In this document: positions 21,420-60,695 of the stretch, in pieces | How the letters are laid out: every line of letters begins with the position of its first letter | Numbering within the stretch: the first letter of the stretch is position 1 | Source: Elusimicrobiota bacterium | GTDB lineage: Bacteria; Elusimicrobiota; Elusimicrobia; UBA1565; UBA9628 | Length of the DNA: 64,000 nt | Assembly: GCA_028868375.1 (NCBI GenBank) | Contig: JAGWUP010000009.1 | Location: 32,538-96,537 of the forward strand | Direction: 5' to 3' | Notes under the pieces: model-generated | The model's input: the letters and a program-made list of their open reading frames with translations, nothing else | The model's database searches: none | Told to the model about the DNA's origin: nothing | Program-made: the position numbers and the translations under genes

Positions 21420-21439
21420 GATCTTTTCGCCTGTCTCGC

Positions 21440-22330: not shown

Positions 22331-22348
22331 TGATGCGTGGGGGTATCA

Positions 22349-22364
22349 GGCAACACTCTTGCCA
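22349..22364 (-). promoter_or_regulatory. sigma-54 (-24/-12) promoter TGGCAagagtgTTGCC upstream of actA
   Basis: Exact GG-N10-GC spacing with TGGCA and TTGC elements on the minus strand, 20-50 nt upstream of the candidate actA start codons. Confidence 0.6.
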
Positions 22365-22414
22365 TCGAACGCGGCAAATAAACGCATTTATTCTGAAATT
22401 ATTCTAAAAGCGCA

Positions 22415-22447
22415 GGAATAGATTCCAAGGGATTTAAAATAAATCCC
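22415..22447. promoter_or_regulatory. two adjacent palindromes (GGAATAGATTCC and GGGATTTAAAATAAATCCC) in an AT-rich region 50-85 bp upstream of the actA sigma-54 promoter; candidate activator (UAS) sites
   Basis: Perfect inverted repeats read from the sequence, in the position expected for bacterial enhancer-binding protein sites. Confidence 0.4.
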
Positions 22448-22478
22448 GGTCCGATACCGGCAGTCGCGAGGCCCGATC

Positions 22479-23024: not shown

Positions 23025-23049
23025 GCATCCCGCTGGCCGCGACGCCGGC

Positions 23050-24417: not shown

Positions 24418-24456
24418 AGTCTCCTCACTCGATGGATGATGTTGTTCTGCGCACAC

Positions 24457-24472
24457 AGCAACATTTTTGCCA
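24457..24472 (-). promoter_or_regulatory. sigma-54 (-24/-12) promoter TGGCAaaaatgTTGCT upstream of the cyc2-like gene
   Basis: Consensus spacing, located about 40 nt upstream of the ATG and directly downstream of the NtrC-family regulator gene. GATTCC...GGAATTTC repeats lie 40-75 bp further upstream (24509-24534). Confidence 0.6.
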
Positions 24473-45192: not shown

Positions 45193-45286
45193 GCGGACGT
45201 CTTTAGGCCCGCAACGCAAAGACCAGCGCTCCGGCCGCAAGCCGGAGCGCCGACGCTGGCTGACGCCCAAGCCGGCTGGCGCCGGC

Positions 45287-46675
45287 TTAGAACATGAACT
45301 GGAACAGCATCCGAGCCTCCACCACCGTTCGCCGGGCCGTTCCGTTGCCTTTGGTGGCCAGCACCGAATTCTGCGTCGTGGCGGTCGGATCGGGGAAGGC
45401 GTAGGCGCCCAGGGGGGTCGGGGCCGCCTCGGTGCCCTTGCCGATGTTGTCGTACCAGATGGGGCAGTTCAGCGTCACCGGGAGGTCGGCGACGATCTTC
45501 ATGTGATTGCCCCGGAAATGCCAGCTTAGGGACGGCGTGATCTCGTGGATCGCCGTGCCGAGATCATTGTTGACCACCGGTCCCAGGATCTGCGGAGGGC
45601 CGGCCTTGGCCGTGCTCAGGAACCCAGACTTGGTGTCCATGGACAGGACCGCGTAGCGCAGCCCCACCGCGAAGCGGCCGACTCTATAGTCGCCCTGGAC
45701 CCTGGCGTTCGCCAGATGGATGACGCCGTAGCGGTTCTGATAGCCGCCCCAGTTGGCCTCGATCTCCCCCTCCAGGGCCGAGCCGACGCCCAGGGGGTGG
45801 CGCAGGACGGCATCCCCGCCCAGCCAGTAGAGGTTGCCGCGCTGCATGTTCGCCGTGTTAGCCGCCGTGTCTCCGGGGCCCGCGCCGATGTAGGGGTTGA
45901 AGCCGGAATCGACCAGCAGGTTCTTGTCGATGGTCCGGACCTGGAGGGCCGAGGAATGGCCGATCAAGGTGTCCTGCATGTAGATGGCGTCGAAGTAAGC
46001 CGCCTTGGTCGTGCGCGTCAGATGGTCGTCGGTGCCGACGACGTGGTAGATGTCCTCGTCGACGCCGTCGTTGTAGCCGAAGCGCGCGGCCAAGTACGGC
46101 ACGCCCAGACGCTCCGGCAGGAAGCGCTGCGGCACGTCCCGCCCGCCGGAGGAAAACGTGCCGAGCGTCCCGGTCCACTTGCCGCTGGCGGCCAGCAAAG
46201 CCAAGCCGTAGTCCCGGCTCTGGTAGGAGCCGAGGTTGGCGATCGAGCGGGAGGTGAAGAGGGCGTAGCCCTGATCGGTCAAGCCCTCGCGGCTGTAGGG
46301 AACCCGAAACTGGCCGATCTTCAGGATCGTGCCCTTCGGGCCGAAGTCCAAGGGGACGTCGGCCACGAAATCCAGCAGCGAGAGGTCGGTGTTGCTGCCG
46401 TTGGCGTCCTCGCCGCCGAAGGCGAACTGCGCGTCGTAGCGGAAGGCGTCCTCGTAATGCCCCTTGAAGCCGATGCGGGCCTGCTTCTGGAACAGATAGA
46501 GCCGGTTATGGTCTCGGTAGGGGTCGGGAACGTTCTCGAGCACGCCCAACATCTGCTCGCGCCCGTAGACGTCGAGGCCGAAGGCGTCATTGTTTACGAT
46601 CTCGACCGCCTGGGCCGGCAGGATCAAGGCGAGAAGCGCGGCCAGCGCCAGCCACGGCCATTTTTTTGTGATCAT
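45287..46675 (-). CDS. outer membrane porin (OprO/OprP-like beta-barrel), putative
   Basis: Signal peptide MITKKWPWLALAALLALILPAQA, alternating beta-strand pattern, and a C-terminal Phe (MLFQFMF). Confidence 0.6.
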   Translation of the reverse strand: MITKKWPWLALAALLALILPAQAVEIVNNDAFGLDVYGREQMLGVLENVPDPYRDHNRLYLFQKQARIGFKGHYEDAFRYDAQFAFGGEDANGSNTDLSLLDFVADVPLDFGPKGTILKIGQFRVPYSREGLTDQGYALFTSRSIANLGSYQSRDYGLALLAASGKWTGTLGTFSSGGRDVPQRFLPERLGVPYLAARFGYNDGVDEDIYHVVGTDDHLTRTTKAAYFDAIYMQDTLIGHSSALQVRTIDKNLLVDSGFNPYIGAGPGDTAANTANMQRGNLYWLGGDAVLRHPLGVGSALEGEIEANWGGYQNRYGVIHLANARVQGDYRVGRFAVGLRYAVLSMDTKSGFLSTAKAGPPQILGPVVNNDLGTAIHEITPSLSWHFRGNHMKIVADLPVTLNCPIWYDNIGKGTEAAPTPLGAYAFPDPTATTQNSVLATKGNGTARRTVVEARMLFQFMF

Positions 46676-47301
46676 GATTTTTTCTCCTTGTCGGAATGCG
46701 CCTTCTCCAGAACCAGATGAAACCGGATGACGACCCGGTCCGCTGTCTTGATCGCGCCGAAGGCCAAGCGCGGCGGCCGCACGCCGAAATCGGTCATGAG
46801 CAGAGGCTGTTGACCGTCGATGATGATGCGACCCTCTTTAAAGGAAAGCGCGGCCTCGATTCGCTCCGGCCGCGTCCGGCCCGCCACGGACAGCTCGCCG
46901 TAGGCCGTTACCGTCGCCGCACCGCTCTCAAGCCGCCCGGCGACGCTGTAGCGATCCATCGCGAACACGATCTCCGGAAAGCGCTCAGCCTTGAGCGCCC
47001 GGGCCATGTTTTTATCGAGCAAGCGATGCGGCGAGCGCAGGGCGGCGACCGGGATGCTCAGCGTCAGGCGCGCGGGAAGCTCGGAGACGACGGCAGAGGA
47101 CAACGATTCCAGGGAAGAAGCGCTCGAAAAGACCAGCTCTAAATCGCTGAAGGTCGCCTGGCTCTCGTAGGCGTGCAGGGTGGACTCCCCCTCCAGCCAA
47201 ATCTTGCTGCCCTCCGCCAGCCCGGCTTGAAAGGCGGCCTGAGCCGCCGGAACCAGGATGATGGCCAAAGAAACGATAACGAATTGGATTATCTTTTTCA
47301 T
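46672..47301 (-). CDS. YceI-family periplasmic protein
   Basis: Signal peptide, YceI-like length and motifs. ATGA overlap with the porin gene. Confidence 0.65.
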   Translation of the reverse strand: MKKIIQFVIVSLAIILVPAAQAAFQAGLAEGSKIWLEGESTLHAYESQATFSDLELVFSSASSLESLSSAVVSELPARLTLSIPVAALRSPHRLLDKNMARALKAERFPEIVFAMDRYSVAGRLESGAATVTAYGELSVAGRTRPERIEAALSFKEGRIIIDGQQPLLMTDFGVRPPRLAFGAIKTADRVVIRFHLVLEKAHSDKEKKS

Positions 47302-47328
47302 CTTATTTTAATCTGGCTAATTTGATTA

Positions 47329-47344
47329 ATGCAACAAAATAGCC
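47329..47344 (-). promoter_or_regulatory. sigma-54 (-24/-12) promoter TGGCTattttgTTGCA upstream of yceI-porin operon
   Basis: Perfect GG-N10-GC spacing in an AT-rich intergenic region, about 28 nt upstream of the yceI ATG. Confidence 0.55.
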
Positions 47345-47380
47345 AAAACAATAAGACGACTTACTTTCGCTAGCCTTGAA

Positions 47381-48337
47381 TCAGCGCCCGAGGCTGGAGA
47401 GGTAGCGGGCCAGGTCCTCGATCTGCAGATCGGTCAACTGGCCGCGGAAGGCAGGCATGCCGGACTTGGGATTGGTCTTGGCGGGATCTTCGATGTAGCG
47501 GACGATGAAGGACTTGTCTCGCGCCGAGCCGATCGTGGAGAGATCGGGACCGACCTCCCCTCCCTGGCCGCGGATCTTATGGCAGACGGCGCAGTTCTCG
47601 GCGAAAAGCTTCGGCGCCTCCTGGGTGAAGGGCTCGTTGGCGATCGACTTAAGGTAGGCCGTCAGGGCCTTGATCTCGTCGTCCAGCAGGCCCAGGCGCG
47701 GCATCGCGGAATGGGGCGTGACGGCGCTGGGATCGCGGAAATGCCGCTCCAGCCACTCGGGCGACTCGGCGCCGACGACCCGGTCGAGCTGGGGCCCGAC
47801 GACGCCGCCCTTGCCGCGAATCTTGTGGCAGTAGGCGCAGTTAAGCTGCCGGTAGAGGCGCGCGCCCTCCACGACCTCGGGGTTTTTCTCGACGACCGGG
47901 TTGACCAAGGGGCTGCGGTAGCCCTCCACCGTCAGGGCCGTGACGCCGGCGATCGCCAAGACCCCCAAGCCGGTCAAAAACGGGCGATCCAGGGGATGGC
48001 GCTTGTGGCCTCGGTCGAACAAGGGCAGGAAAAACAAGGCCGCGAAGACGGCTCCCGGCAGCACCACGGCGGCCACCGACTCCAAGCTGCCGGGGAAGGC
48101 CTTCAAAGCCTGGAACAGAAAGAGGAAATACCATTCCGGCCTCGGGTTGTAGGAGGTGTCGGTGGGGTCGGCCAAGCTCTCCAGATGGGCCCCCAACTTC
48201 CAGGCCAGGAAGGCCAGCAGCCCGAAGAGGAGGAAGGCCACGAGGCAATCCTTGAAGACCGCGTACGGAAAGAAGGACTTGCCCTTCTGCTTGAGCTCCT
48301 TATAGCGGCGCTCGTAGTCCTGATGCCAATCAGCCAA
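47381..48337 (-). CDS. cytochrome bc complex subunit: cytochrome b C-terminal (subunit IV-like) domain fused to diheme cytochrome c
   Basis: N-terminal 3-TM PetD-like segment (FPYAVFKDCLVAFLLFG), then two CxxCH motifs (CAYCH, CAVCH). Confidence 0.8.
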   Translation of the reverse strand: MADWHQDYERRYKELKQKGKSFFPYAVFKDCLVAFLLFGLLAFLAWKLGAHLESLADPTDTSYNPRPEWYFLFLFQALKAFPGSLESVAAVVLPGAVFAALFFLPLFDRGHKRHPLDRPFLTGLGVLAIAGVTALTVEGYRSPLVNPVVEKNPEVVEGARLYRQLNCAYCHKIRGKGGVVGPQLDRVVGAESPEWLERHFRDPSAVTPHSAMPRLGLLDDEIKALTAYLKSIANEPFTQEAPKLFAENCAVCHKIRGQGGEVGPDLSTIGSARDKSFIVRYIEDPAKTNPKSGMPAFRGQLTDLQIEDLARYLSSLGR

Positions 48338-49037
48338 GAGGGTTTCCCTCCCCGCGCCGCCGGGCGCGCTCCGGAGGCTCGGAGATGCCGTGCCAGACCA
48401 CCAGGAAGAGGTGGATGCCGATGAGGAGGAGGACGACGGCCGGCAGCACCAGCACGTGCAGGGCGTAGAAACGGGTCAAAGTCGAGGCCCCCATCTCGCC
48501 GCCGCCCTTGAGGATCTTGGAGACGAGGGGACCCACAAAAGGAGTCTGCCCGGCGATGTTGGTGCCCACCATCGTGGCCCAATACGCCTTCTGGTCCCAC
48601 GGCAAGAGGTAGCCGGTGAAGCCGAAGCCGATGACGACGAGCAGCAGGACGACGCCGACCATCCAGGTGCCCTCGCGCGGGTATTTGTAGGCGCCCATGA
48701 AGTAGACGCGCAGCATGTGCAGCACGACCAGCACGACCATGAAGCTGGCGCCGAAATGATGGAGGCCGTGGATGAAGGAGCCGCAGAGGACCTTCTCGTT
48801 GATGAAGCGCACGGAATCGTAGGCGTGGTCCGGCGAGGGCACGTAGTTCATCGCCAGCAGCGCCCCGGTGACGGCCTGGACCACGAAGATGAAGAGTGTG
48901 GCGCTGCCCAAAGTGTAGAGCCAGGCCGTCGGTCCCTCGGCCTCCGGGATGTGGCGGGCGAAGAGGGTCTCCCAGACCCGGTCGCAGCCCGTGCGCCGGC
49001 GCAGCCACTCCCCGACGGCGCGGCAGCGGCGCTTCAC
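48330..49037 (-). CDS. cytochrome b6-type (N-terminal four-helix) subunit of a cytochrome bc complex
   Basis: Four TM helices with conserved heme-ligand His pairs (FIHGLHHFGASFM and YALHVLVLP). ATGA overlap with the Rieske gene. Confidence 0.85.
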   Translation of the reverse strand: MKRRCRAVGEWLRRRTGCDRVWETLFARHIPEAEGPTAWLYTLGSATLFIFVVQAVTGALLAMNYVPSPDHAYDSVRFINEKVLCGSFIHGLHHFGASFMVVLVVLHMLRVYFMGAYKYPREGTWMVGVVLLLVVIGFGFTGYLLPWDQKAYWATMVGTNIAGQTPFVGPLVSKILKGGGEMGASTLTRFYALHVLVLPAVVLLLIGIHLFLVVWHGISEPPERARRRGEGNPLG

Positions 49038-49564
49038 GCGGCCCCCTTCTCGTCAACCGGGCGTATGAGCAGGCGGCCGGAGACGACCTTGACCGGGAAG
49101 CGGTCCAGCGGCCGCGGCGGAGGCCCGGAGAGCACCTTCCCCTCCCGGTCGAAGACCCCCGCGTGGCAGGGGCAGAGAAACTCCTGCTTGCCCTGGTCCC
49201 AGCGGTAGGGGCAGCCCAAATGCGTGCAGCGCGGATCGAAGGCGATGAAGCGCCCCCCTCCGAGATTCGACAGCCAGACCGAGGACCTCTTCTCGGTGAC
49301 GACCCAGGCGTCCCGCTTGCGGGCCACGTAGTCCACCTTGACCGGAGCGCCGGTCCTCAGCTCGGAGGCCCTGCCGACGTCGATCCAATTCTCATCCTCC
49401 TTCTCGAAGGCGGGAGAGACGAAATAAGACAGGCCGGCGGCTCCGAGGACCGAGGCGATCGTCCCCGCGAGGAGGGCCGCCGCGCCGGCCAAGAAGCCTC
49501 GGCGCGTGACCCCCTGCTCCTCCGCCTCCGATTCGCAGGGGCAGCGGCCCAGGCCCGTCGTCAT
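49034..49564 (-). CDS. Rieske [2Fe-2S] iron-sulfur protein, Tat-exported
   Basis: Tat signal TRRGFLAGAAALLAG and Rieske boxes CTHLGC and CPCHAG. Confidence 0.9.
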   Translation of the reverse strand: MTTGLGRCPCESEAEEQGVTRRGFLAGAAALLAGTIASVLGAAGLSYFVSPAFEKEDENWIDVGRASELRTGAPVKVDYVARKRDAWVVTEKRSSVWLSNLGGGRFIAFDPRCTHLGCPYRWDQGKQEFLCPCHAGVFDREGKVLSGPPPRPLDRFPVKVVSGRLLIRPVDEKGAA

Positions 49565-49565
49565 C

Positions 49566-49943
49566 CTACTCGACGTCCTTCTTGACGGCCTTCCGGGATT
49601 CCGTCTTGGCGCCGAACGCCCTCAAATAGGCCACGACGTCCGCTATCTCCGCATCCTTGAGCTTTCCCTTGAACGCCGGCATGGTCTTCCTGCCCGCCTC
49701 GTTGCTCACACCCTCGGAAACGGCCGAGGCGAGCTTCTCATCGGAGAGTCCCTGAATCCTTGCCGAGCCCAGGTTGAGGTCCTCCAGCTTGGCCTTGAAC
49801 AGCCTGGCGATCCCCGGATTGCCCTTGCCGTCCTTGGCATGGCATGCGGAGCATTTGGCGAGGAACAGATTCCGACCTTCCGTCTTGGAGGCGGGAGCGG
49901 CGGCAGCGCAGACGGCCAACAACAGGATGACGATTGATTTCAT
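49566..49943 (-). CDS. monoheme class I cytochrome c (c6/c553-like)
   Basis: Signal peptide, CSACH and a Met ligand region KTMPAF. Confidence 0.8.
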   Translation of the reverse strand: MKSIVILLLAVCAAAAPASKTEGRNLFLAKCSACHAKDGKGNPGIARLFKAKLEDLNLGSARIQGLSDEKLASAVSEGVSNEAGRKTMPAFKGKLKDAEIADVVAYLRAFGAKTESRKAVKKDVE

Positions 49944-49976
49944 TGCTTCTCCTTTAAGTCTAGCAAGTCTCGAATC

Positions 49977-51020
49977 TCAGGCCACCGCCTCTCGCGGCCG
50001 AGCGAAAGCGGCCGCCTTGTCTAGCTCCAGGGCGCAGCGGGAGGCCGCCTCCGAGACCAAGCTCTCGGCCGCGGCCTTGTCCTTCGCCTTGGCCTCGACG
50101 CTGCGGGCCACGACCTGCTTGAGGTCGTCCAGATCGTAGAGATACGCCCCGCTGACCGCAGCGCAGCCGGGATCGACGTTCCTGGGCATGCCCAGGTCGA
50201 TCAAGAAAAGCGGCCGCCTCCGGCGCGCGACGATGCCGCGCAGCATTTCGGCCTGCAGCAGCGCCGCCGGGCTGGCGGTGGAGAAGACGCCGACCTCGGC
50301 GCGGGCCAAAAGCTCCAGCCCCTCCGCAAACGTCATCGGCCGCCCCCCGATCCTGCGCGCCAGCTCCTCCGCCCGCTCCGGCGTCCGGTTGGCCACGCTG
50401 ATGTCCTTGAAATTCTTGACGGCCAAATGACGCGCCACGGCCTCCGCCGCCTCCCCCGCCCCGAAGACGACGATGGAGCCGTCGTCGCGCGAGCCGAAAA
50501 TCTGCCGCGCCAGCGCGGCCGCTGCCCCCCCGATCGAGGACACCCCGTTCTGGATGCCGGTGCGCGCGCGCGCCGACTTGCCGGCGGCCAGGGCGCTTTG
50601 AAAGCACCGGTTAAGCCAAGGCCCCGTCATTTTAGCCGCGCGAGCCGCCTCGTAGGCCCGCTTGACCTGCCCCAGCACCTCGGATTCGCCGATGATCCAG
50701 GAATCCAAGCCGGCGGCCACCCGGAAGAGATGCCCCAGCGCGGCATTGCCGAGCAGGCTGCCCAGGCTGCCCTCAAGCCCGGGTCCGCCGCGCCGCAAGA
50801 ACCATGCTCTCGCCCGACCGGCGGCTTGCCCGGCGCGCGGCGCAACTCCGTAGATCTCAAGCCGGCTGCAGGTCGACAGCAACACCAGCTCCGAAACCCC
50901 CAGCTCGCGGGCCAGCCCGGGCAATTGCGCCGCCACTTCAACCTCCGGCACGGAGGCCCGCTCCCGCTCCTTTAAGGGCGCCGACAAGTGGCTGAAGCCG
51001 ACCTTGAAGAGCTCGCTCAT
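49977..51020 (-). CDS. hemA: glutamyl-tRNA reductase
   Basis: Conserved catalytic LSTCSRLE (Cys), NADPH-binding VFGAGEAAE, and typical HemA order of domains. Confidence 0.85.
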   Translation of the reverse strand: MSELFKVGFSHLSAPLKERERASVPEVEVAAQLPGLARELGVSELVLLSTCSRLEIYGVAPRAGQAAGRARAWFLRRGGPGLEGSLGSLLGNAALGHLFRVAAGLDSWIIGESEVLGQVKRAYEAARAAKMTGPWLNRCFQSALAAGKSARARTGIQNGVSSIGGAAAALARQIFGSRDDGSIVVFGAGEAAEAVARHLAVKNFKDISVANRTPERAEELARRIGGRPMTFAEGLELLARAEVGVFSTASPAALLQAEMLRGIVARRRRPLFLIDLGMPRNVDPGCAAVSGAYLYDLDDLKQVVARSVEAKAKDKAAAESLVSEAASRCALELDKAAAFARPREAVA

Positions 51021-51069
51021 GTTCGGATTGTTCTTCGATTAAGCAACCAAGCAACGCTACGGCCAAATC

Positions 51070-51085
51070 TCTAAAAAGCGAGGGA
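51070..51085 (-). promoter_or_regulatory. sigma-54 (-24/-12) promoter TGGCCgtagcgTTGCT upstream of the hemA-bc complex operon
   Basis: Perfect spacing, about 50 nt upstream of the hemA ATG. Confidence 0.5.
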
Positions 51086-51112
51086 GAGCGCCGCGGCGCC
51101 CCCCTCGTCGGA

Positions 51113-53080
51113 TCAGAACTTCGCCGACAACGACAGCTCGCTGACGCCTATGCGGCCGTTCTGCGAGCCGTCCAGCTTATCGACCCACTGCTCCTCGTCG
51201 TAGGAGGCCCGGGCGCTGAGGTTCTTGTAGAGCTCGCGCGCCAGGGACACCGTCCAGTGCGTGATCCGGACCTCGGTGGGAGCCAGGTCCGAGAGATGGA
51301 CGCCGACGGAGGCCCCCGTGAAGTAGGGGTCGAAGGCCGTCACGAACCAGTGCGCGTTGGAGATCGTATACGACAGATTCGCGCGCGCCGTCAACTTCAG
51401 GGGCAAGCATGCCATGCCGTTGGCCGAGATGACATGGTTTTCGTAGTCGTAGCTGGAATCCGGGATGTGGATCAGGTTGACGACGTTGTTGCCGTTAAAC
51501 GCGACGTTGCTGGCTCCGAAGTAGGCGTCGATGGTGTCTTTGCCTCGCTCGTAGGCGTAGCCGCCTCCCAGGGAGGCCTTGCCGTCCTGGCGGGACCACT
51601 GCAGGTCGAAGAGCACCCGGTTGAGCCGCTGCTTGAAGTTGTTCGGCGAGCGGTCGCTGTCCTCGCCGATGCCGTCCCAGTTGGCGTTGAAGGCCAGCGT
51701 CTCCGCCAGGGGAACGTAGATCGCGACGGTCTCGTAGTGGCCGAGGGTCGGCGAGTTCTCGTAGGCGGCGCGGTTCGCGGTCAGGAAACGATAGCCCGCC
51801 GAGAGGCTGGCCCCGGCCGGCAGGTCGAAATCCGCCATCAACTCGACCTGATGCTTGGTGTCCTTCGTCTGCGGTCCGTAGAACTGCGTCTCGGCCGGCT
51901 GGAAGGTGCCGTCCTGGTAGAGGGCGTCGTCGCCGTAATCGCCCGGCCTCTGGTCGGCGTTGCGCCGATAATTGTACTCCGGCTTGTAGCCCAGGGAGAG
52001 GGCCACGTGCTCTATGCCGGTGTAGCGCGCCTTGACGTCGGCCCGCATCTGGTAGAAGTCGATGCGCGGGTCCGGCGGGCTGGCGTTGTCGAAGGCCGCG
52101 AAGCTGTTGTTGACCGCGGTGTTCATCACGTGGTCGTAGAGCCGCGCGGAGATCGAGAAGTCCTTGGCCGGCAAATACAGCGTCCCGAGGTTGCTGTCGA
52201 CGACTTTCACCTTGTAGCCGTTGGTCTCTCCGACTCGCTCGCGGTAATCCACACCGCCGGCCGCGTTGATGTCGGCCGTCAGCGGGAAGTGGAAGGCCGC
52301 CTGGTGTATGTCCGTGCGCTGCTCGGAGACCCAGCTTAAGTCGGCGGTCGGATAGCCGCTGAAGGTGCCCGCGATCTTCGAGTCCACTGAGCTCGGGGCC
52401 TTGTCCGCGAACTTGCGCGCCGTGTAGGTGTAGCTGACCTCGCCCTTGCCGACATCCGCCTGGGCGCCCACCGTCACGTCCCTGGTGAAGCGGTCGATCT
52501 GCTGGGAGGTCACGTCCTCCTTGGTCGCCCCGGTCGTGCCGTCATAGCCCAGGGGCTGGGTGCCCTTCTCCGTTTCCTGCCAGTAGCCGGCCAGCAGGCG
52601 CAGGGCCGGCATGCGCGGGCAGGACAGCCACAGGTCGGCGTTCTCCTCGGTCCTTTTGAAGAGAAGGTCCTCGCCGCCGTAGTCGACCTTGGTCTGCGTA
52701 TTAGGAGTCCACTGGCCGTCCTGGATGATGCCGTTGGTGACGATGGGTTGGCGATGGGTCAGGATGCCGAAGCTGGAGTCCAGGCCCAGATAGCCGCCGA
52801 CGTTGAGGTCAAGACGCCCGCTCTCGTTGGAGCTGCCGACGTCGTTGATCCCCAGGTCCAACAAGGCGTTGCCGAAGTCGGACTTCACCCAAGCGCTGCC
52901 CTCCAGCGGATTGTACAGGTTTCCGTCATACTCGCGGACGTTGCCCTGGAATCCCCTGCGATCCGCCGAGAAGAACTTAGCCTCGGCCCCCGCCGAGCCC
53001 TCCGCCGCACGCAGCGGCCAGGCCAACGCGAGCAGCATCCCTCCCAATCCGGCGGCTACCGCCGCCTTGATGAACCTCAT
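51113..53080 (-). CDS. MtrB/PioB/MtoB-family outer membrane beta-barrel protein (porin partner of a decaheme cytochrome), putative
   Basis: GAAGGAGG RBS, signal peptide MRFIKAAVAAGLGGMLLALAWPLRA, about 630 aa of Asp/Gly/Tyr-rich alternating strands, and a terminal Phe (SLSAKF). Lies 55 nt downstream of the decaheme gene. Confidence 0.55.
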   Translation of the reverse strand: MRFIKAAVAAGLGGMLLALAWPLRAAEGSAGAEAKFFSADRRGFQGNVREYDGNLYNPLEGSAWVKSDFGNALLDLGINDVGSSNESGRLDLNVGGYLGLDSSFGILTHRQPIVTNGIIQDGQWTPNTQTKVDYGGEDLLFKRTEENADLWLSCPRMPALRLLAGYWQETEKGTQPLGYDGTTGATKEDVTSQQIDRFTRDVTVGAQADVGKGEVSYTYTARKFADKAPSSVDSKIAGTFSGYPTADLSWVSEQRTDIHQAAFHFPLTADINAAGGVDYRERVGETNGYKVKVVDSNLGTLYLPAKDFSISARLYDHVMNTAVNNSFAAFDNASPPDPRIDFYQMRADVKARYTGIEHVALSLGYKPEYNYRRNADQRPGDYGDDALYQDGTFQPAETQFYGPQTKDTKHQVELMADFDLPAGASLSAGYRFLTANRAAYENSPTLGHYETVAIYVPLAETLAFNANWDGIGEDSDRSPNNFKQRLNRVLFDLQWSRQDGKASLGGGYAYERGKDTIDAYFGASNVAFNGNNVVNLIHIPDSSYDYENHVISANGMACLPLKLTARANLSYTISNAHWFVTAFDPYFTGASVGVHLSDLAPTEVRITHWTVSLARELYKNLSARASYDEEQWVDKLDGSQNGRIGVSELSLSAKF

Positions 53081-53135
53081 GGCTTGCCTCCTTCTGTCGC
53101 TTCGTCCATACGCCTTGAGCGTTTCCATGGCGGCC

Positions 53136-54077
53136 TCAATGCGGAATGAACCGCATATGGCGGTCCGAGCCGTGGATCTCGCGGTGGCAGTTGACGCAGC
53201 GGCCGCGCTGCAGCAACAGGGCGCTGCTGGTGTATGCGTTGGCGTTATTAACGGTGCCGGTGTGCGGGAACTTGTGGCACTGCAGGCACAAGAACGGCAG
53301 CGCCTGCTTGAGCATGCGGTCGTTGATGCTGCCGTGCGGATCGTGGCAGTTGAGGCAGTTCTCGGTGACCGGCGGATGCTCGTAGGCGAACGGCCCCAGC
53401 TTCTCGGCGTGGCACTTGCCGCAGAGCTCCGGCACGCTGCCGGCCCGGATATTGCCGGACTCGCCCCCGTGCGGGTTGTGGCAGCTGGCACAGCTCATCT
53501 TGCCCTCCATCACGGGATGATGGGAGGGAAGGTTCATGCCCAGCTTCTTGGTCTTGTGGCACTTAAGGCAGGTCTCCGTCTCCGCCAGATACTCGTTGGA
53601 ATTCTCGACCTTCAGGTTGCGCGGGCCGTGGCCCTGATGGACGCTGTGGCAGGTCAGGCAGGAGAGGCCGTTGGCCGCATGCGGGCCGATGTTCCAATAC
53701 ATGACCTCCTGCTGCTTGTGGCAGTTGAGGCAGAACTTGCTCTGCTCGGCCGGCGGCAGCTTCAGGGGATCGATGATGGTGGCAAACCCCGGATTGCTCC
53801 TGTCTCCCGCGGCGGCCGCATGCAGGGAGCCGGGGCCGTGGCAGGTCTCGCAGCTCTTCTCGAAGTCGATGCCCTTGACCACCGGCAGGCGCTTTCCGTG
53901 CATCGACTGCTTGAACTGCTCCGCCTTGTCGGAATGGCAGGCGATGCAAGTCGAGGCGCCGACGTACGTCGGCTCGTCTACGGCGCGCGCCGCGCCGGCC
54001 AGGCAGAAGGCGAGCGCTCCCGCAAGCGCAGCCGTCCCCAGCCCCCTCATCCCCTCTCGGCCCGTCCTTGATCTCAT
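53136..54077 (-). CDS. periplasmic decaheme c-type cytochrome, MtrA/DmsE/PioA/MtoA family
   Basis: AAGGAG RBS, signal peptide and ten CxxCH motifs in 313 aa (CIACH, CETCH, CLNCH, CLTCH, CLKCH, CASCH, CGKCH, CLNCH, CLQCH, CVNCH). Confidence 0.8.
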   Translation of the reverse strand: MRSRTGREGMRGLGTAALAGALAFCLAGAARAVDEPTYVGASTCIACHSDKAEQFKQSMHGKRLPVVKGIDFEKSCETCHGPGSLHAAAAGDRSNPGFATIIDPLKLPPAEQSKFCLNCHKQQEVMYWNIGPHAANGLSCLTCHSVHQGHGPRNLKVENSNEYLAETETCLKCHKTKKLGMNLPSHHPVMEGKMSCASCHNPHGGESGNIRAGSVPELCGKCHAEKLGPFAYEHPPVTENCLNCHDPHGSINDRMLKQALPFLCLQCHKFPHTGTVNNANAYTSSALLLQRGRCVNCHREIHGSDRHMRFIPH

Positions 54078-54883
54078 CGCGCTTCTCCTTGCCAGGGATA
54101 TCGCCGCTGGCCTTTCCCGTCTTTTAAATTCTGCCCGTTGTCGGGATCGCGCCGCGATGACCGAAGTGCCGCGCGGTCTTGATAAAAGTCATCCGCGGCC
54201 GCGGGCAGGCAGGCCGCGGCGCGCAGCCGCCGTTGGTCGAGCACGCGGGCGACGCGCCCCTCGAGGGCGAGGATCCCGCCGCGCTCCAGTTGCGCCAGGG
54301 CGCGGCAGACGACCTCGGGAGCGGTCCCCAGGCGCTTGGCCAGCTGCTGGCGCGAGGCTCCCAGATCGGCCAGGCGCGAGCCGGGGGCGCGCTCCAATTC
54401 GCGGGCGATCAGCCTGGCCAAGCGCTCGCGCAGCGGGCGCAGGCCGAGCTCGGCGCAAAGATCCTGGACCTGCCCCAAGCGCTCGGCCAGACGGCGGGCC
54501 AGGGCGCGCACCAAGGCCGGCTCCCCCTCCCAGAGGCGGCGGAAGCGGGAGGCGTCGAGAAAGCAGATGCGCGAGTCCTCGGCGGCCTCGGCCGTGGCCT
54601 CGTAGGGCCGTCCCGCGATCAAGGCCCGCTCGCCCAAAACATCAGGCCCCGAGGCGAAGCGCACGATCTGCTGGCGGCCGCTGCCGGCGCTCTGCGACAA
54701 GGCGACTCGTCCGGAGCAGACGAAGTAGAGGCCCTGCGGCTCGTTGCCTTGGTAGAAGAGGATATCTCCGCGGCGGTAATCGTTGCCGCGCCAGCCCTGG
54801 CACAGCCTGTCCGCTGCCGTCCGCGGCAGGGCCAGCGAGGCGGGCCAGCGCAACAGGCCGCAGCGCCCGCGCATGCCCCTCAT
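54074..54883 (-). CDS. Crp/Fnr-family transcriptional regulator
   Basis: cNMP-binding beta-roll (DILFYQGNEPQGLYFVCSGRVAL), a C-terminal HTH (RQQLAKRLGTAPEVVCRAL) and an ATGA-type overlap with the decaheme gene. Start approximate (ORF extends to 55078). Confidence 0.75.
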   Translation of the reverse strand: MRGMRGRCGLLRWPASLALPRTAADRLCQGWRGNDYRRGDILFYQGNEPQGLYFVCSGRVALSQSAGSGRQQIVRFASGPDVLGERALIAGRPYEATAEAAEDSRICFLDASRFRRLWEGEPALVRALARRLAERLGQVQDLCAELGLRPLRERLARLIARELERAPGSRLADLGASRQQLAKRLGTAPEVVCRALAQLERGGILALEGRVARVLDQRRLRAAACLPAAADDFYQDRAALRSSRRDPDNGQNLKDGKGQRRYPWQGEAR

Positions 54884-54979
54884 CCCGCAGGGACCACGAT
54901 CGCATTCATGCCAGCTTCGCGCCATTGAACGGCGCGAAGCAACACAATGGCCCGGCAGATTCGTTGCTTTTAACCGATC

Positions 54980-55624
54980 ATGGCCGCGCGCGGCGAGCTC
55001 GCCTACCTTTATAAGGGGCGTCTCTACCTCAACCTGACCAATCGCTGCCCCACCGCCTGCCGCTTCTGCGCCAAGCACGCCTGGGACTGGAATTATCGGG
55101 GCTCACGGCTGCTGCTTGGGCGCGAGCCGACGGTCGGCGAGCTGCTGGACGCGGCGCGCTGCAGGCTGCCCGACGCCCCGTCGCGGGAAATTATTTTTTG
55201 CGGCTTCGGCGAGCCCACGGAGCGCCTGGCGACCTTGCTCGACCTCTCGGAGGCCCTGCGCAGCGGCCAGCCCGGCCTGTCGCTGCGCCTCAACACCGTG
55301 GGCCTGGGCACCCTCTCCAACCGCCGCGACATCGTCCCGGAGCTGGCGGCGGTCCTCGACTCGGTCTCGGTCAGCCTCAACACGGCCGACGCCGCTCAAT
55401 GGCGCTTCCTGCACCGCCCGCGCGCCAATCTCGCCGCGGCCGGGTTTTGCGCCGTCTGCGACTTCATCCGCGGCTGCGTCCAAGCGAAGCTGGAGACGAC
55501 GGTCACGGCCGTCGAGCAGCCCGGCGTCGACTTGGCGGCCGTGGCGGCGCTCTCCCGCCGCTTGGGGGCCGGCTTCCGCCTGCGCCCGCAGCTCGTCGAT
55601 CGCCCTCAGCGGGCCGGCTCGTAG
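54980..55624 (+). CDS. small radical SAM protein
   Basis: CxxxCxxC motif NRCPTACRFC near the N-terminus, 214 aa. Confidence 0.6.
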   Translation: MAARGELAYLYKGRLYLNLTNRCPTACRFCAKHAWDWNYRGSRLLLGREPTVGELLDAARCRLPDAPSREIIFCGFGEPTERLATLLDLSEALRSGQPGLSLRLNTVGLGTLSNRRDIVPELAAVLDSVSVSLNTADAAQWRFLHRPRANLAAAGFCAVCDFIRGCVQAKLETTVTAVEQPGVDLAAVAALSRRLGAGFRLRPQLVDRPQRAGS

Positions 55625-56667
55625 AGGCAGCCCGGATCGGAGGCCAGGTAATCGCCCGTCATCGCGTGGGCGCGGGCGCGGGAGCCGGAGCAGACGACGC
55701 GGAACTCGCAGGCGCCGCATTTGCCCTTGAGCCGAGAGGGATCGCGCAGGGCCAAGAAAAGATCGGAGTCGCGGTAGACCTTCGCGATGGAGTCCGTGCG
55801 CACGTTGCCGGCCGCCAGCGGCAAGAAGCCGGAGGGGCAGATGTCGCCGCGGTAATCCACGAAAGCGAAGCCCTTGCCGGCGTTGACGGCCACCTTGGTG
55901 GCCGTCGCCCCTCCTCTAATGCCGGGGCCCTTGGCCGCGCCGGCCGCAAGCCCGCCATGCTGAGCCAAGTACCTGCGGTAATGCTGCCCCTCGGTCAGCT
56001 TGACGACGAAGCCGGCCCCCGCTTCAAGCTGGCGCAAGCGCTCGAAGGCGTCCTCGAACTCTTGGGGCGAGAGCCCGCCCAGCTCCACTCCGCGTCCGAC
56101 CGGAATCAGGAAGAAGACCTCCCAGAACACCACGCCCAGGCGGCAGACCAGCTCGATCATCGCCTCGAGGGCGTGGGCGTTGGAGCGAGAGAAGCAGGTG
56201 TTGATCTGCAGGGGCAGCCCCAGCTCACGCGCCCAGCCCGCCGCCTCCAGGGTGCGCTCGAAGGCTCCCGGCACCCCGCGCAGGCTGTCGTGCAGCGCCG
56301 CGTCCGGGCCGTCGAGGCTCAGGGCCAGCTGATCGAGGCCCAGATCGCGCAGGCCCTCCAGCCGGCGGCGCGTCAAATTCGGCGTGGCCGCCGGGATCGT
56401 GCCCATGCGCAGGCCTCGCTCCTTGCCGCGCGCCACCAAAACCTCCAGGTCGGGGCGATTGAAGGGGTCTCCACCGGAGAGGATCATGATCGGGGTGCCC
56501 ATCCCGGCCACCGCGTCGATGAGCCCGCGGCCCTCCTCGCTCGTCAACTCCTGCGGCGAGCGCCCCAGCTCGGCTGAGGCGCGGCAATGTCGGCAGGCCA
56601 GGGCGCAGGAGCGAGTCGTCTCCCAGATGACCAAGAGCGGCGCGACGCCGAAATCAGGCGCCTTCAT
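55606..56667 (-). CDS. radical SAM/SPASM-domain protein (NirJ/AhbC/AhbD/PqqE-like)
   Basis: N-terminal LLVIWETTRSCALACRHC (CxxxCxxC) and a C-terminal SPASM Cys cluster (CPSGF, CGACEFRVVCSGSRARAH). Confidence 0.75.
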   Translation of the reverse strand: MKAPDFGVAPLLVIWETTRSCALACRHCRASAELGRSPQELTSEEGRGLIDAVAGMGTPIMILSGGDPFNRPDLEVLVARGKERGLRMGTIPAATPNLTRRRLEGLRDLGLDQLALSLDGPDAALHDSLRGVPGAFERTLEAAGWARELGLPLQINTCFSRSNAHALEAMIELVCRLGVVFWEVFFLIPVGRGVELGGLSPQEFEDAFERLRQLEAGAGFVVKLTEGQHYRRYLAQHGGLAAGAAKGPGIRGGATATKVAVNAGKGFAFVDYRGDICPSGFLPLAAGNVRTDSIAKVYRDSDLFLALRDPSRLKGKCGACEFRVVCSGSRARAHAMTGDYLASDPGCLYEPAR

Positions 56668-57110: not shown

Positions 57111-57917
57111 ATGATGATCCACGTTCCCCCTCGACGGCTGCTGGTCGCCTATGATTTTTCGCGGCGCGCCGCCTTGGCCTGGCGCGCCGCCCTGGCCTTG
57201 GGGCGGCTGTGGGGCTGCGGGGTGGAGGCCCTGCACGTCGTCGATCCGATGGAATCTCCCGGACGCGCCCCGCTGACTCTCGCGCCATCGAGGCGCGGCC
57301 TGCTGCGCCGCCGCCTGGAACAAGCCATCCCGGGCGCTTCCTCCTATTTCATCGCCCTGGGCGACCCTGCCTTCTGCATCCTCGAGCACGCCCGCTGGCG
57401 CCGCCCGGACTTGATCGTGCTGCCCTACGAGGGCAGGCGCGGCGTCGCTCGGCTGCTGAAAGCCTCGGTCGCCGAGATCGTCGCCGGGCAGGCCTGCGCC
57501 CCGGTCCTTGTCTTGAAAGGCTGCCCCCGACGAGTGCGCTCGGTCCTCTTTCCGATCCTCGCCGCGGACGCCGAGCATTCCGCGCTGCGCCAGGCGGCGG
57601 GGATCGCGGCGGCCCTATCGGCCCACATGACGGTGATGCGCGTGCGGCGCGCGCCTTGGCCGCGGCCAAGGGCGCTCTCGAAGCTGGAAAGCGTCCTGGA
57701 GACGCTGGACCCGGCCGTCCGAGCCGTCGTCAAGCCGGACATGCGACTGGCCGCCGGCAGCCCGGCGCGGCGCCTTGCCGAGGAGTCCGGGCGCCATGAC
57801 CTGCTCGTGCTGCCCCTGGCGCCTGGCCGCGCCGGCTCTCAAGCGCTGCGGCTCTCCGAAGCGCGCCGTCTCATGCGCCTCTCTCGGGCCGCGGTGCTTA
57901 CCTTGCCTTCTGAGTGA
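57111..57917 (+). CDS. universal stress protein (tandem UspA-like)
   Basis: Internal ATG start MMIHVPPRRLLVAYDFS and two USP-like halves (VLPYEGRRGVARLLKASVAEIV). Confidence 0.55.
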   Translation: MMIHVPPRRLLVAYDFSRRAALAWRAALALGRLWGCGVEALHVVDPMESPGRAPLTLAPSRRGLLRRRLEQAIPGASSYFIALGDPAFCILEHARWRRPDLIVLPYEGRRGVARLLKASVAEIVAGQACAPVLVLKGCPRRVRSVLFPILAADAEHSALRQAAGIAAALSAHMTVMRVRRAPWPRPRALSKLESVLETLDPAVRAVVKPDMRLAAGSPARRLAEESGRHDLLVLPLAPGRAGSQALRLSEARRLMRLSRAAVLTLPSE

Positions 57918-59244
57918 CCGCCACGCCGTAGGATTTAAGCTTGCGCCAGAGGGTGTTGCGCCCGACTCCGAGCCGCCGGGCCGCCTCGGTGGCGTTGCCG
58001 CCGCAGGCCTCAAAGACGGCGAGAATATGCTTGCGCTCCAGCTCCTCCAAGGTCTCGGCCGCGACGCCGCTCGGCCCCTGCAGCTCCGCCGGCAAATCCG
58101 GCAAGGACACCGCGGGACCGGAGGCCATGATCAGGGCCCGCTCGATGGCGTGCTCCAGCTCCCGGACGTTCCCCGGCCAAGAGTAGGCCGCAAGCGCCGA
58201 GGCCGCCTCCGGGGCCAGCCGCACGGCCGAGCCCCCCGTCTTCTTCTTGGCCTTGCGCAAGAAATGCTCGGCCAGCGGCAGGATGTCCTCCCGGCGCTGG
58301 CGCAGCGGCGGAATCTCGATGGGAAAGACCTTCAGCCGGTAGTAGAGATCTTCCCGGAATTTCCCCTCTTTGACGCGCTGGGCCAGGTCCTTGTTGGTGG
58401 CCGCGACCAGGCGGCCGGACACCTTGATGGGGTGGTTGTCGCCGACGCGCCGCACCTCCCCCTCCTGCAGCGCGCGCAGGAGCTTGACCTGCAGGGCCAA
58501 GCTCGTCTCGCTGATCTCGTCGAGAAACAGGGTCCCGCCGCTGGCCTCCTCGAAGAGCCCGCGCTTGTTGCGGTCCGCGCCCGTAAACGAGCCCTTGACG
58601 TGCCCGAAGAGCTCGCTCTCGAGCAGCCCCTCCGGCAGCGCGCCGCAGTTGATCGCCACGAAGGAGCCGCTGCGCCGGGGGCTGTTCTCGTGAATGGCGC
58701 GGGCGACGAGCTCCTTTCCGGTGCCGGACTCCCCGCAGACCAGCACCGTCGCCTCGGTGACGGCGACTTTCTTGACTAACTCCAGCACCCGGTGCATCTG
58801 GGGCGAGCCGTAGACGATGCCCTCGAAGCTGTACTTGCCCTTCACCTCCTCGCGCAGCCGGCGCACCTCTCCCAGCAGGCTTCTGCGCTCCAAAGCCTTG
58901 TGCAGCACCAGCGCCAACTGCTCGGTCTCGATCGGCTTGGTCAGGAAATCGAAGGCCCCCGCCTTCATCGCGGCCACGGCCGAGGAAATCGAGCCGTGCC
59001 CGGTGACCACGACGACCTCGGCGTCCGGCTGCTCGCGCTTGGAGGCGCGCAGCACCTCGAGGCCATCGCTGTCTGCCAAGCGCAGATCGGTCAGCACCAG
59101 CTCGTAGTTGTCTCGCGCCAGATGCGCGAGCGCCTCGGATGCCGATTTCGCTGCGGTCACCGCGTAGCCTCGCCCCTTGAGCTCGAAGGAGAGCAGGGTC
59201 TGCTGCGAGGGATCATCCTCCACCAGCAATATCTTGAGCGCCAT
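57898..59244 (-). CDS. sigma-54-dependent response regulator (NtrC family)
   Basis: [17 protein letters not shown]+ [14 protein letters not shown]-like [15 protein letters not shown] and a C-terminal Fis-type HTH. TGATG overlap with the kinase gene. Confidence 0.9.
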
Positions 59245-60695
59245 CAGTCCCCCGAGAAGCCGAGCTGGACCTGGAAACGGGTGCGCCCCGGCCGAGTCTC
59301 CACGAAGATCGCCCCGCCGTGAGCCTTGACGATGCGCTCCGCGATCGCCAGCCCCAGGCCGGTGCCCTGCTGCTTGGTCGTCTGGAAGGGCTTGAACATC
59401 GAGGCGCGCATCGCCTCCGGAATGCCGGGGCCGGTGTCCTCGACCTCGAAGAAGGCGCGCCCGCCGCTGCGCCCCGTGCGCACGCTGAGCTTCCCCCCGC
59501 CGGCCAAGGCCTGCAGGGCGTTGATCATCAGATTCCAGACCACCTGCCGGAGCTGGTCGGCGTCCATCGGGAAGGGCTTGAGCTCCTTCGACAGGGAGAG
59601 GACGATCTGCGTGGAGGCCTTGAGCTCGGCGTTGGACTCGATCATGCGCGCCGTCTCCTCGATCAAGCCGTTGAGATCGGAGCGCGCCAGCTTCAGCTCC
59701 CGCGGCCGGGCGAAGGAGAGGAAGTTGGTGAGCGCCTCGTTGAGCCGTTGGCTTTCGTGGCGCAGCACGCGCATGACGACGTCCCTGTCCTCCGCGTTGA
59801 GCTCGGAGCCGGAGGCCAGCTCCTTGGCCGCCATCACGATGGAGCTTAAGGGATTGCGTATCTCGTGGGCGACGACGGCGGCCATCTCGCCCAGGGAGGC
59901 CAGGGCCTCCGAGTCGGCCACGCGCGCCTGCAGCGCCAAGTGCTCGGTCATGTCGACCGCGTTCGAGATGTAGCCCACGATCTCTCCGGCCCCGTCGCGC
60001 ACGGCGGTGATGGTCAAGACCAGCGGTATCTCGCGCCCGTCCTTGGCCTTGTTGATCATCTCGCCGCGCCAGTGGCCCTTGGTGAGGATCGCTTCCCACA
60101 TCCTCTTATAGAGCTCGTCGCTGGAGTGGCGCGAGCGCAGGATGCGGGGAGTGCGGCCGACCGCCTCCTCCCGCGACCAGCCGTAATGGCGGCTGAAGGC
60201 CTCGTTGACGTCGAGGATCGTCCCGTTGCGGTCGCAGTAGAACATCACCTCGTTGGAGCGGCGGAAGGCCTCGTAAAGGGTCAGGGCCAGCCGGCGGTCG
60301 CGCGCCTGCTCGCCGATGTCGCGCGCGGTCACGAGGACGGCCCGCTCCGCTCCCAGCCGCACCAGCCTGCCCTTCTGCTCGACGGCCACCGGCCGTCCGA
60401 TCTTGTCGCGCAGGGTCGCCGGAAAATCCCCGGAGCCCGCCGCCAGCACGCGGCGGATCCAGGCCTTGTCCAAGGCCGCGTCCTTGGGGTCATAATAGAA
60501 TTCCGAGATCGAGCGGCCGAGAAGCTCCCCCTTGTCGTAGCCGGTCCCGCGCAGAGCCGCCGCGTTGACGTCGAGCACCGTCCCCTCGGGATCGCGCAGC
60601 CAGACCCAATCCGGCAACAGCTCGAAGATGTCGAGCTCGTGGACCACGTTCTGGCGACGGACCATGCGTCTATTAAATATAATTTTGCGTTCCAT
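59244..60695 (-). CDS. tandem-PAS sensor histidine kinase (soluble)
   Basis: Two PAS domains, H-box VAHEIRNPL and HATPase_c (DTGPGI, GTGLGL). Confidence 0.85.
   Translation of the reverse strand: MERKIIFNRRMVRRQNVVHELDIFELLPDWVWLRDPEGTVLDVNAAALRGTGYDKGELLGRSISEFYYDPKDAALDKAWIRRVLAAGSGDFPATLRDKIGRPVAVEQKGRLVRLGAERAVLVTARDIGEQARDRRLALTLYEAFRRSNEVMFYCDRNGTILDVNEAFSRHYGWSREEAVGRTPRILRSRHSSDELYKRMWEAILTKGHWRGEMINKAKDGREIPLVLTITAVRDGAGEIVGYISNAVDMTEHLALQARVADSEALASLGEMAAVVAHEIRNPLSSIVMAAKELASGSELNAEDRDVVMRVLRHESQRLNEALTNFLSFARPRELKLARSDLNGLIEETARMIESNAELKASTQIVLSLSKELKPFPMDADQLRQVVWNLMINALQALAGGGKLSVRTGRSGGRAFFEVEDTGPGIPEAMRASMFKPFQTTKQQGTGLGLAIAERIVKAHGGAIFVETRPGRTRFQVQLGFSGD

Follow-up and report, generated by a model that had tools for sequence, protein, structure and literature searches.

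We analyzed a 64-kb stretch (64,000 nucleotides, hereafter the window) of a draft metagenome-assembled genome (MAG) of an Elusimicrobiota bacterium (assembly GCA_028868375.1, contig JAGWUP010000009.1, ~67% GC) and focused on three minus-strand genes that code for a Crp/Fnr-family regulator, a decaheme c-type cytochrome and an outer-membrane beta-barrel protein (Table 1). A first reading made from the sequence alone had described a 313-amino-acid (aa) secreted protein with ten CxxCH motifs, followed after 55 nucleotides (nt) by a 655-aa protein ending in Phe, and rereading the sequence confirmed this arrangement. The Crp/Fnr regulator that the same reading had placed directly upstream, overlapping the decaheme start, is also there: the protein carries both Pfam domains of the family, and the crp stop codon overlaps the decaheme start codon by 4 nt (ATGA). 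In the NCBI annotation, crp instead starts at 54874. Upstream of the decaheme gene is a ribosome-binding site of the AAGGAG type, and the barrel gene starts at an ATG behind an AGGAGG. We considered a 792-aa open reading frame (ORF) reaching up to 53491 as the barrel gene and rejected it as a high-GC artefact because seven homologues all begin at the start Met of the 655-aa protein.

The decaheme cytochrome has a signal-like N terminus that ends in ARA, followed by VD, and its ten CxxCH motifs are at residues 44, 76, 116, 140, 170, 196, 219, 241, 264, and 294. In the six frames of the window, ORFs that reach 100 aa and contain any CxxCH number just eight, and this one is unique in having ten, so the heme pattern is not a chance occurrence. 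The protein scored 242.8 bits against TIGR03508, the DmsE/MtrA family model (cut-off, 192.2 bits), with residues 40 to 306 aligned on model positions 1 to 256 of 258. It scored 254.8 bits against NF041028, the GSU2203 family model, which is below the cut-off of 325 for that family. The best match among solved structures was MtrA of the Mtr complex (6r2q_A; E=1.1e-45); identity was 39.5% across 256 aligned positions, and each of the ten heme motifs shared its alignment columns with a motif of MtrA. The chain labels of PDB entry 6R2Q are misleading, since chain A (MtrA) is called "Cystathionine beta-synthase" and chain B (MtrB) "Uncharacterized protein."

These family searches bear out the MtrA-like identity first suggested from the sequence alone, and the sequence identifies the decaheme as a periplasmic c-type cytochrome of the DmsE/MtrA/MtoA family with a predicted Sec-type signal peptide. 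It is not an orphan protein of the NrfB type. A role as an NrfB or NrfH protein was rejected on weak matches far below the cut-offs and on the lack of a nearby nrfA gene, and a DmsEF-type system was rejected on the lack of an adjoining molybdoenzyme gene. A lipoprotein was also considered and dismissed, as the sequence LAFC is not a lipobox.

The barrel protein has a signal-like N terminus, a C terminus that reads LSAKF, and only two Cys residues (154 and 558), with no CxxCH motif. An AlphaFold2 model of the protein (pLDDT [predicted local distance difference test] score, 70; predicted template modeling [TM] score, 0.64) showed 26 long strands with no plug or N-terminal domain, in agreement with the barrel of about 26 strands that had been expected. 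When we compared the model with the PDB using Foldseek, MtrB (6r2q_B) ranked first, with an E value of 6e-16 and TM scores of 0.62/0.62, and the next match was at 6e-8. MtrB was also the sole full-length fold match, with 528 aligned residues versus 206 to 395 for the other matches listed, while sequence identity in the structural alignments was ~10%. TonB-dependent transporters, LptD, and ushers were rejected as identities for this protein because their folds overlapped the model only partially and the model has neither a plug nor an N-terminal domain. By this comparison and the profile searches below, the barrel is not an unrelated porin or autotransporter.

A word-index homologue search with the barrel returned seven relatives, and every one with an organism name came from an Elusimicrobia MAG. 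In each named record the protein is annotated as "hypothetical protein." An exhaustive hmmsearch with a profile of this clade against 1.84 billion cluster representatives collected 151 proteins at E<=1e-3, 45 of them at E<=1e-30. The close-clade members sampled that carry an organism name are all from Elusimicrobia MAGs, and one more distant match (E=5e-35) is labelled Firmicutes. We scanned 68 sequences, consisting of the window barrel and 67 distant relatives, for known families and found PF11854 (MtrB_PioB) in 42, TIGR03509 in 35, and NF041027 (the GSU2204 family) in 65. An hhalign comparison of the barrel clade with the distant relatives gave a probability of 100% and an E value of 3.7e-64 over 584 columns, and a combined profile of the wider superfamily matched MtrB (6r2q_B) over its full length at E=9e-28. 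The CxxCH motif is absent from all ~48 members of the Elusimicrobia clade, and nearly all of them end in Phe.

Several results weigh against this assignment. A Pfam scan of the window barrel gave no family at E<=0.01, PF11854 included, and TIGR03509 did not match it. NF041027 produced only a 39-residue local match over the IDRFTRD region (residues 192 to 230), at 37.8 bits versus a cut-off of 350. A profile of the barrel's own clade found nothing among the PDB sequences at E<=10. The AlphaFold2 model was built on seven sequences only and has 188 residues below a pLDDT of 50, and there is some circularity in the hhalign result, since it was the clade's own profile that had gathered the distant relatives. 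Taken with the fold and the profiles, these results identify the barrel, at the level of sequence and model, as a remote, phylum-specific branch of the MtrB/PioB superfamily that lies outside every curated family as now drawn. The MtrB/PioB-like character proposed in the sequence-only reading therefore stands at the superfamily level, through fold and profiles, and does not extend to membership in any curated MtrB/PioB or GSU2204 model.

We compared the window with four related Elusimicrobia loci (L005 to L008) whose barrels are 26 to 42% identical to the window barrel, inspecting up to 8 kb of flanking DNA on each side where the contig allowed. A ten-heme homologue lies directly upstream of the barrel gene in all four (five of five with the window). 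Moreover, four metagenomic proteins of ~970 aa among the distant barrel relatives (P0058, P0060, P0061, and P0113) are natural fusions of the two components, with ten CxxCH motifs within the first ~310 residues followed by a barrel with an eleventh CxxCH; they join a GSU2203-type decaheme to a GSU2204-type barrel. At the sequence level, these fusions provide Rosetta-stone evidence for a decaheme-barrel partnership. The remaining neighbors are less constant. A Crp homologue lies upstream in the same orientation in two of the four loci, hemA adjoins the pair in three, monoheme cytochrome c homologues stand beside the barrel in two (L005 and L007), and a bc complex accompanies the pair in one (L005, ~4.6 kb downstream of the barrel).

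From these data, we propose that the decaheme and the barrel form a two-component porin-cytochrome conduit of the MtrAB/MtoAB/PioAB type, to which we assign a probability of roughly 0.8. The grounds are that the decaheme has a clear family assignment, that the barrel is modeled with an MtrB-like fold and is remotely homologous to MtrB, that the two genes stay side by side across loci, and that natural fusions exist. That the decaheme sits inside the barrel, which proteins are its partners, and which way electrons flow are inferences. In the proposed mechanism, the 313-aa decaheme would be exported to the periplasm and threaded into the lumen of the 26-strand barrel, where its ten hemes would form an insulated wire across the outer membrane. 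As no MtrC/OmcA-type cytochrome is present for the cell surface, electron exchange with an external substrate would fall to the outermost of the decaheme's own hemes; Fe(II), iron minerals, humics, and a partner cell are possible substrates. In the periplasm, the likely partners are the neighboring monoheme cytochrome c and Rieske/cytochrome b complex, through which the wire would reach the quinone pool, and this place would be taken in related Elusimicrobia by quinol dehydrogenases that are CbcL/MtoC-like or NrfH-like. The Crp/Fnr protein is probably the regulator of the unit, and its gene is probably cotranscribed with those of the decaheme and the barrel.

We detected no MtrC/OmcA-like gene in the 64 kb of the window or in the flanking DNA of L005 to L008; an outer cytochrome of this kind could be encoded elsewhere in the genome. 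PF22113 gave only weak matches, to the ActA pentaheme of the window and to a small pentaheme of L005. No CbcL/MtoC-like or NrfH-like gene occurs within the 64 kb of the window, which has the Rieske/b complex near the module instead. Three of the related loci encode an 11-heme cytochrome c fused to a b561/FdnI-like membrane domain, the CbcL/MtoC architecture, and NrfH-like multiheme proteins occur in L005 and L008 (Table 1). Two CbcL/MtoC/MtrH homologues had already been counted in Elusimicrobia by Zhong and Shi, who also remarked that mtoC is often found in a cluster with mtoAB (PMC6295460).

By its predicted content, the module resembles MtoAB of Sideroxydans lithotrophicus ES-1 and PioAB of Rhodopseudomonas palustris TIE-1, two-component conduits for Fe(II) oxidation or electron uptake, because no locus has an MtrC/OmcA-like outer cytochrome nearby; the likeness is one of description, not of sequence alignment. 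Shared with these systems are the decaheme-then-barrel order and the lack of an outer MtrC-type cytochrome, and, as there, the window decaheme is of MtrA size and has ten CxxCH motifs. The related Elusimicrobia loci add an MtoC/CbcL-like inner-membrane cytochrome, as in mtoABC(D) clusters (PMC6295460), and the window genome also has a Cyc2-like gene, as does Sideroxydans (PMC11429942). Unlike in MtoAB and PioAB, the barrel is too divergent for PF11854 or TIGR03509, the host belongs to the Elusimicrobiota and not the Proteobacteria, and the neighbors are Crp/Fnr, hemA, and a Rieske/b complex in place of MtoD/CymA or PioC. The 313-aa decaheme also lacks the long N-terminal extension of PioA. Shewanella MtrCAB (6R2Q), encoded in the order mtrC-A-B, differs in having an MtrC partner gene, and MtrB differs from the window barrel in having an N-terminal CXXC motif.

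The proteins GSU2203 and GSU2204 of Geobacter sulfurreducens (NF041028 and NF041027) represent the best-scoring named family for the decaheme and the sole named family that touches the barrel directly, with both window proteins below the curated cut-offs as given above. In GSU2204-type barrels, a CxxCH occurs after ~190 residues of the barrel, and selenocysteine is present in some of them, whereas the Elusimicrobia clade is without the CxxCH. Geobacter also has the OmaB-OmbB-OmcB and ExtABCD complexes, which combine an octaheme periplasmic cytochrome with a smaller, ~20-strand barrel and a lipoprotein cytochrome on the outside; they are not regarded as homologues of MtrAB. The window module would share with them the general plan of a periplasmic multiheme cytochrome inside an outer-membrane barrel, and it differs from the Geobacter porin-cytochrome complexes as generally known in its DmsE/MtrA-family decaheme and predicted 26-strand barrel. 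The NF041027 proteins have been described as MtrB/PioB-family barrels (PMC13188914).

Table 1. Features of the decaheme-barrel locus, its surroundings in the window, and related Elusimicrobia loci (positions in the latter carry the locus name)
Feature	Position	Strand	Basis or remark
Crp/Fnr-family transcription regulator (crp)	54883-54074	minus	Pfam cNMP_binding 5.4e-22, HTH_Crp_2 8.6e-11
Decaheme c-type cytochrome, 313 aa	54077-53136	minus	Ten CxxCH, TIGR03508
Spacer between decaheme and barrel, 55 nt	53135-53081	minus	Sequence read; AGGAGG ribosome-binding site 6 nt before barrel ATG
Outer-membrane beta-barrel, 655 aa, remote MtrB/PioB superfamily member	53080-51113	minus	
Terminator-like GC-rich hairpin and T-run	51104-51073	minus	8 nt after barrel stop; 9-pair stem, 7 GC pairs, then CTCGCTTTTT
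Sigma-54 core TGGCCGTAGCGTTGCT	51065-51050	minus	30 nt upstream of hemA
hemA (glutamyl-tRNA reductase)	51020-49977	minus	TIGR01035, 279.7 bits vs 209.55 cut-off
Monoheme class I cytochrome c, 125 aa	49943-49566	minus	Pfam Cytochrome_CBB3, Cytochrom_C
Rieske protein	49564-49034	minus	Pfam
Cytochrome b, N-terminal part	49037-48330	minus	Pfam
Cytochrome b, C-terminal part fused to diheme cytochrome c	48337-47381	minus	Pfam
Sigma-54-like element GGGCcattgtgTTGCT / GGGCCATTGTGTTGCT	54953-54938	minus	3 mismatches to TGGCAC-N5-TTGCW
Sigma-54-like element CGGCAGATTCGTTGCT	54954-54968	plus	Weak
FNR/Crp-box-like ATGACTTTTATCAA	54179-54192		2 mismatches to TTGAT-N4-ATCAA
TGGC-N7-TTGCW cores	6294, 14180, 24457, 47330, 51050, 57066; 60727, 61871	minus; plus	
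rpoN	60773-61861		In window
Sigma-54 activator/histidine kinase pairs (two)	24553-27287; 57898-60695		
Radical SAM/SPASM protein	55606-56667		TIGR04053, 427 bits
Cytochrome bd quinol oxidase subunit I	34217-32802	minus	Pfam, E=5.7e-167
Second candidate iron-oxidation cluster	13111-24472	minus	
Cyc2-like fused cytochrome-porin, 455 aa	24416-23050	minus	PSFARKYGVSCSQCH motif, no Pfam match, ends VEVGF
Monoheme cytochrome c, 181 aa	23024-22479	minus	Beside Cyc2-like gene
ActA pentaheme	22330-21440	minus	Alternative Complex III
ActB	21533-18507	minus	Alternative Complex III
ActC, NrfD-like	about 19215-17134	minus	Alternative Complex III
ActD	17137-16607	minus	Alternative Complex III
Protein with seven class I cytochrome c domains, 781 aa	16610-14265	minus	
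11-heme cytochrome c fused to cytochrome b561/FdnI-like membrane domain (CbcL/MtoC architecture)	L005 10272-12104; L006 577-2586; L007 875-2920		
NrfH-like 13-heme and 6-heme proteins	L005 12064-13686; L008 5102-6820		

The sequence around the module suggests that crp, the decaheme gene, and the barrel gene probably form a three-gene unit, since between the barrel gene and the hemA and bc genes lie a hairpin resembling a terminator and a good sigma-54 core. The hairpin is a consensus match only, and terminator-like sites in the region from 45000 to 55200 number 6 versus 7.5 expected by chance. The core motif TGGC-N7-TTGCW occurs eight times in the window versus 1.14 expected, and none of 100 shuffled sequences reached eight. 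By their coordinates, the cores lie at or just before same-strand starts, and the genes concerned are the Cyc2-like gene, yceI, hemA, the CBS/radical SAM genes, rpoN, and the gene for a small ScdA_N protein; the gene starts at the cores at 14180 and 57066 are ambiguous. At the hemA and Cyc2-like sites, where we read the local sequence, the core points toward the start codon from a short distance upstream. The TGGCCGTAGCGTTGCT core ahead of hemA probably starts a separate predicted transcript of hemA, the cytochrome c gene, and the bc complex.

The sequence-only reading had also placed a weaker sigma-54-like element before crp. The string is present 55 to 64 nt before the crp start, at a sensible position and in a sensible orientation, but matches of its class, with three mismatches, are at chance level, numbering 207 in the window versus 222 expected. 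Matches to GGC-N7-TTGCW without the leading T are similarly at their expected number (5 versus ~5.3). This element, GGGCCATTGTGTTGCT, and a second weak one on the plus strand, CGGCAGATTCGTTGCT, stand back to back in the 96-nt divergent intergenic region between a TatD-linked radical SAM gene and crp, and each of them points toward the gene on its own side. The two are among the five non-TGGC matches in the window, an arrangement that is suggestive and not significant. In the related loci, true sigma-54 cores precede the c-decaheme-barrel run of L005 and the hemA-decaheme-barrel run of L006, and a core nearly identical to TGGCCGTAGCGTTGCT lies at 13700-13715 of L005, ahead of the pentaheme and Rieske genes. 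The window itself encodes rpoN and two sigma-54 activator/histidine kinase pairs. By these sequence matches, sigma-54 control of the module is plausible in the lineage and is putative for the window copy.

A sigma-70 promoter scan of the region from 45000 to 55200 found nothing, and there is no perfect FNR/Crp box (TTGA-N6-TCAA) in the window. The low-complexity 3' tail of crp contains a box-like sequence, ATGACTTTTATCAA, ~100 nt ahead of the decaheme ATG, and this sequence may, as a lead only, mark an internal Crp-dependent promoter. Matches to such boxes with no more than two mismatches number 18 in the window versus 6 expected. The sequence of the Crp/Fnr protein shows no evident FNR-type N-terminal Cys cluster.

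Downstream of the module, hemA is followed by genes for a monoheme cytochrome c and for a Rieske protein with a split cytochrome b, and after these bc genes come genes for YceI and a phosphate-type porin. The hemA product is probably an accessory that would supply heme and stand outside the conduit. The 125-aa monoheme protein is a candidate periplasmic partner of the decaheme. The Rieske protein together with the split cytochrome b/diheme cytochrome c would constitute a b6c-type quinol:cytochrome c oxidoreductase and is a candidate for the inner-membrane end of the pathway. The case for the bc complex as a partner is weakened because its genes lie behind the hairpin with their own promoter and accompany the pair in only one of the four related loci. 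A gene for a radical SAM/SPASM protein (TIGR04053) lies 1.5 kb upstream of the module and recurs in L008; against the AhbD heme b synthase model the protein reaches 304 bits, short of the cut-off for that model. Heme-synthesis genes, hemA and this TIGR04053 radical SAM gene, thus travel with the module. The window further encodes subunit I of a cytochrome bd quinol oxidase, so reduction of O2 from the quinol pool is possible, which bears on the direction of electron flow.

A second candidate iron-oxidation cluster lies in the left part of the window, where genes were identified by calling based on third-codon-position GC content (GC3) together with targeted Pfam scans. The Cyc2-like gene claimed in the sequence-only reading exists, beside a cluster for a complete Alternative Complex III. 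Its product has the N terminus PSFARKY...CSQCH, which we take to be typical of Cyc2. A monoheme cytochrome c gene adjoins it, and a homologue of this gene lies directly upstream of the decaheme gene in L005.

With regard to direction, we lean, on indirect grounds, toward inward flow, with oxidation of Fe(II) or minerals, and favor it modestly over outward metal reduction. Mtr-type conduits are reversible, and CbcL-type partners occur in iron reducers and iron oxidizers alike (PMC6295460), which counts against a firm choice. The lean toward uptake comes from the lack of an MtrC/OmcA-like gene in the five loci, from the presence in the same window of the Cyc2-like gene, with its sigma-54 promoter, and the Alternative Complex III cluster, and from the link that the Cyc2-adjacent monoheme cytochrome c makes to the L005 decaheme. 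A further ground is that Cyc2 has been reported in mine drainage rich in Fe(II), from an Elusimicrobiota MAG with the same GC content as the window, 67% (PMC8357290).

The same hardware might instead carry electrons outward. Oxidation of quinol at the inner membrane would then feed periplasmic cytochromes and, through them, the decaheme-barrel wire; the extracellular acceptor would be Fe(III)/Mn(IV) oxides, humic substances, or a syntrophic partner, and the Crp/Fnr protein would induce the genes under anoxia. We consider this a serious rival and the less probable of the two directions. Crp/Fnr regulators classically activate anaerobic respiration, but the regulator here has no evident FNR-type Cys cluster. 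The neighboring inner-membrane complex of the window is of the Rieske/b type with a class I cytochrome c, and such complexes usually deliver electrons at potentials above those of MtrA-type hemes, which argues against outward flow. Outward flow is favored by the best-scoring named family, that of GSU2203 (OmcK) and GSU2204 of the iron reducer Geobacter, which were up-regulated with hematite and magnetite (PMC4070692), and by the CbcL-like and NrfH-like quinol dehydrogenases beside the pair in relatives, which are quinol oxidases in Geobacter and Shewanella. However, no MtrC/OmcA/UndA-type surface cytochrome was found in the window or the four related loci, and the Cyc2-like and Alternative Complex III genes in the window point to the lifestyle of an iron oxidizer.

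The pair could also be half of a three-component, MtrCAB-like system whose extracellular multiheme cytochrome is encoded elsewhere in the genome. This has some appeal, since the inspection covered 64 kb of a draft MAG and Shewanella MtrAB works with MtrC (6R2Q). We regard it as unlikely, because five independent loci, with flanks of up to 8 kb, have no MtrC/OmcA-type gene, and MtoAB and PioAB function without an outer cytochrome (PMC6831781, PMC11429942). Least probable is that there is no conduit, and that a soluble periplasmic carrier or reductase subunit of the NrfB/DmsE type, serving a periplasmic enzyme, stands by chance next to a large channel for diffusion or uptake that is unrelated to it: direct membership of the barrel in a Pfam/TIGRFAM family is lacking, the decaheme gives weak NrfB and NrfH matches, and large barrels are alike in fold, so that TonB-dependent transporters and LptD also surface in fold searches, but adjacency is kept in all five loci, natural fusions exist, MtrB is the sole full-length fold match, the 26-strand model has no plug or N-terminal domain, profiles link the barrel strongly to MtrB/PioB, and no periplasmic reductase gene adjoins the pair.

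Elusimicrobia were for a long time taken to be fermenters, and respiration of oxygen or nitrate has been attributed to them more recently. The main text of the reference comparative genomic study of the group never mentions iron, multiheme, extracellular, or Mtr (10.1101/765248), and the only related report that we found for the phylum concerns Cyc2 and leaves MtoA and MtrB unmentioned (PMC8357290). The type of system described here is already well known; what is new is the phylum that hosts it, how far the barrel has diverged, and the barrel's loss of a heme motif that the nearest named family has. A conserved conduit of the MtrAB/MtoAB type in several Elusimicrobia MAGs would add electron exchange with minerals or iron to the repertoire of the phylum. 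The clade also shows that iron-gene surveys can miss conduits, because the barrel is annotated as "hypothetical" and fails the Pfam/TIGRFAM models that pipelines use. An alignment of the barrel clade could seed a new hidden Markov model (HMM), and the natural decaheme-barrel fusions would be useful for structural and synthetic work on transmembrane wires.

As a tentative and rather doubtful extension, free-living Elusimicrobia of this lineage may be lithotrophic oxidizers of iron or minerals with two parallel entry points in the outer membrane, each with its own quinone-reducing complex. The Cyc2-like protein would be served by Alternative Complex III, the heme-less MtrB-like barrel with its MtoA-like decaheme would be served by the Rieske/b complex, and both would be under sigma-54 and Crp/Fnr control. 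If this is true, the capacity of the phylum for extracellular electron transfer is systematically under-counted, because the barrel clade is invisible to current HMM-based surveys of iron genes.

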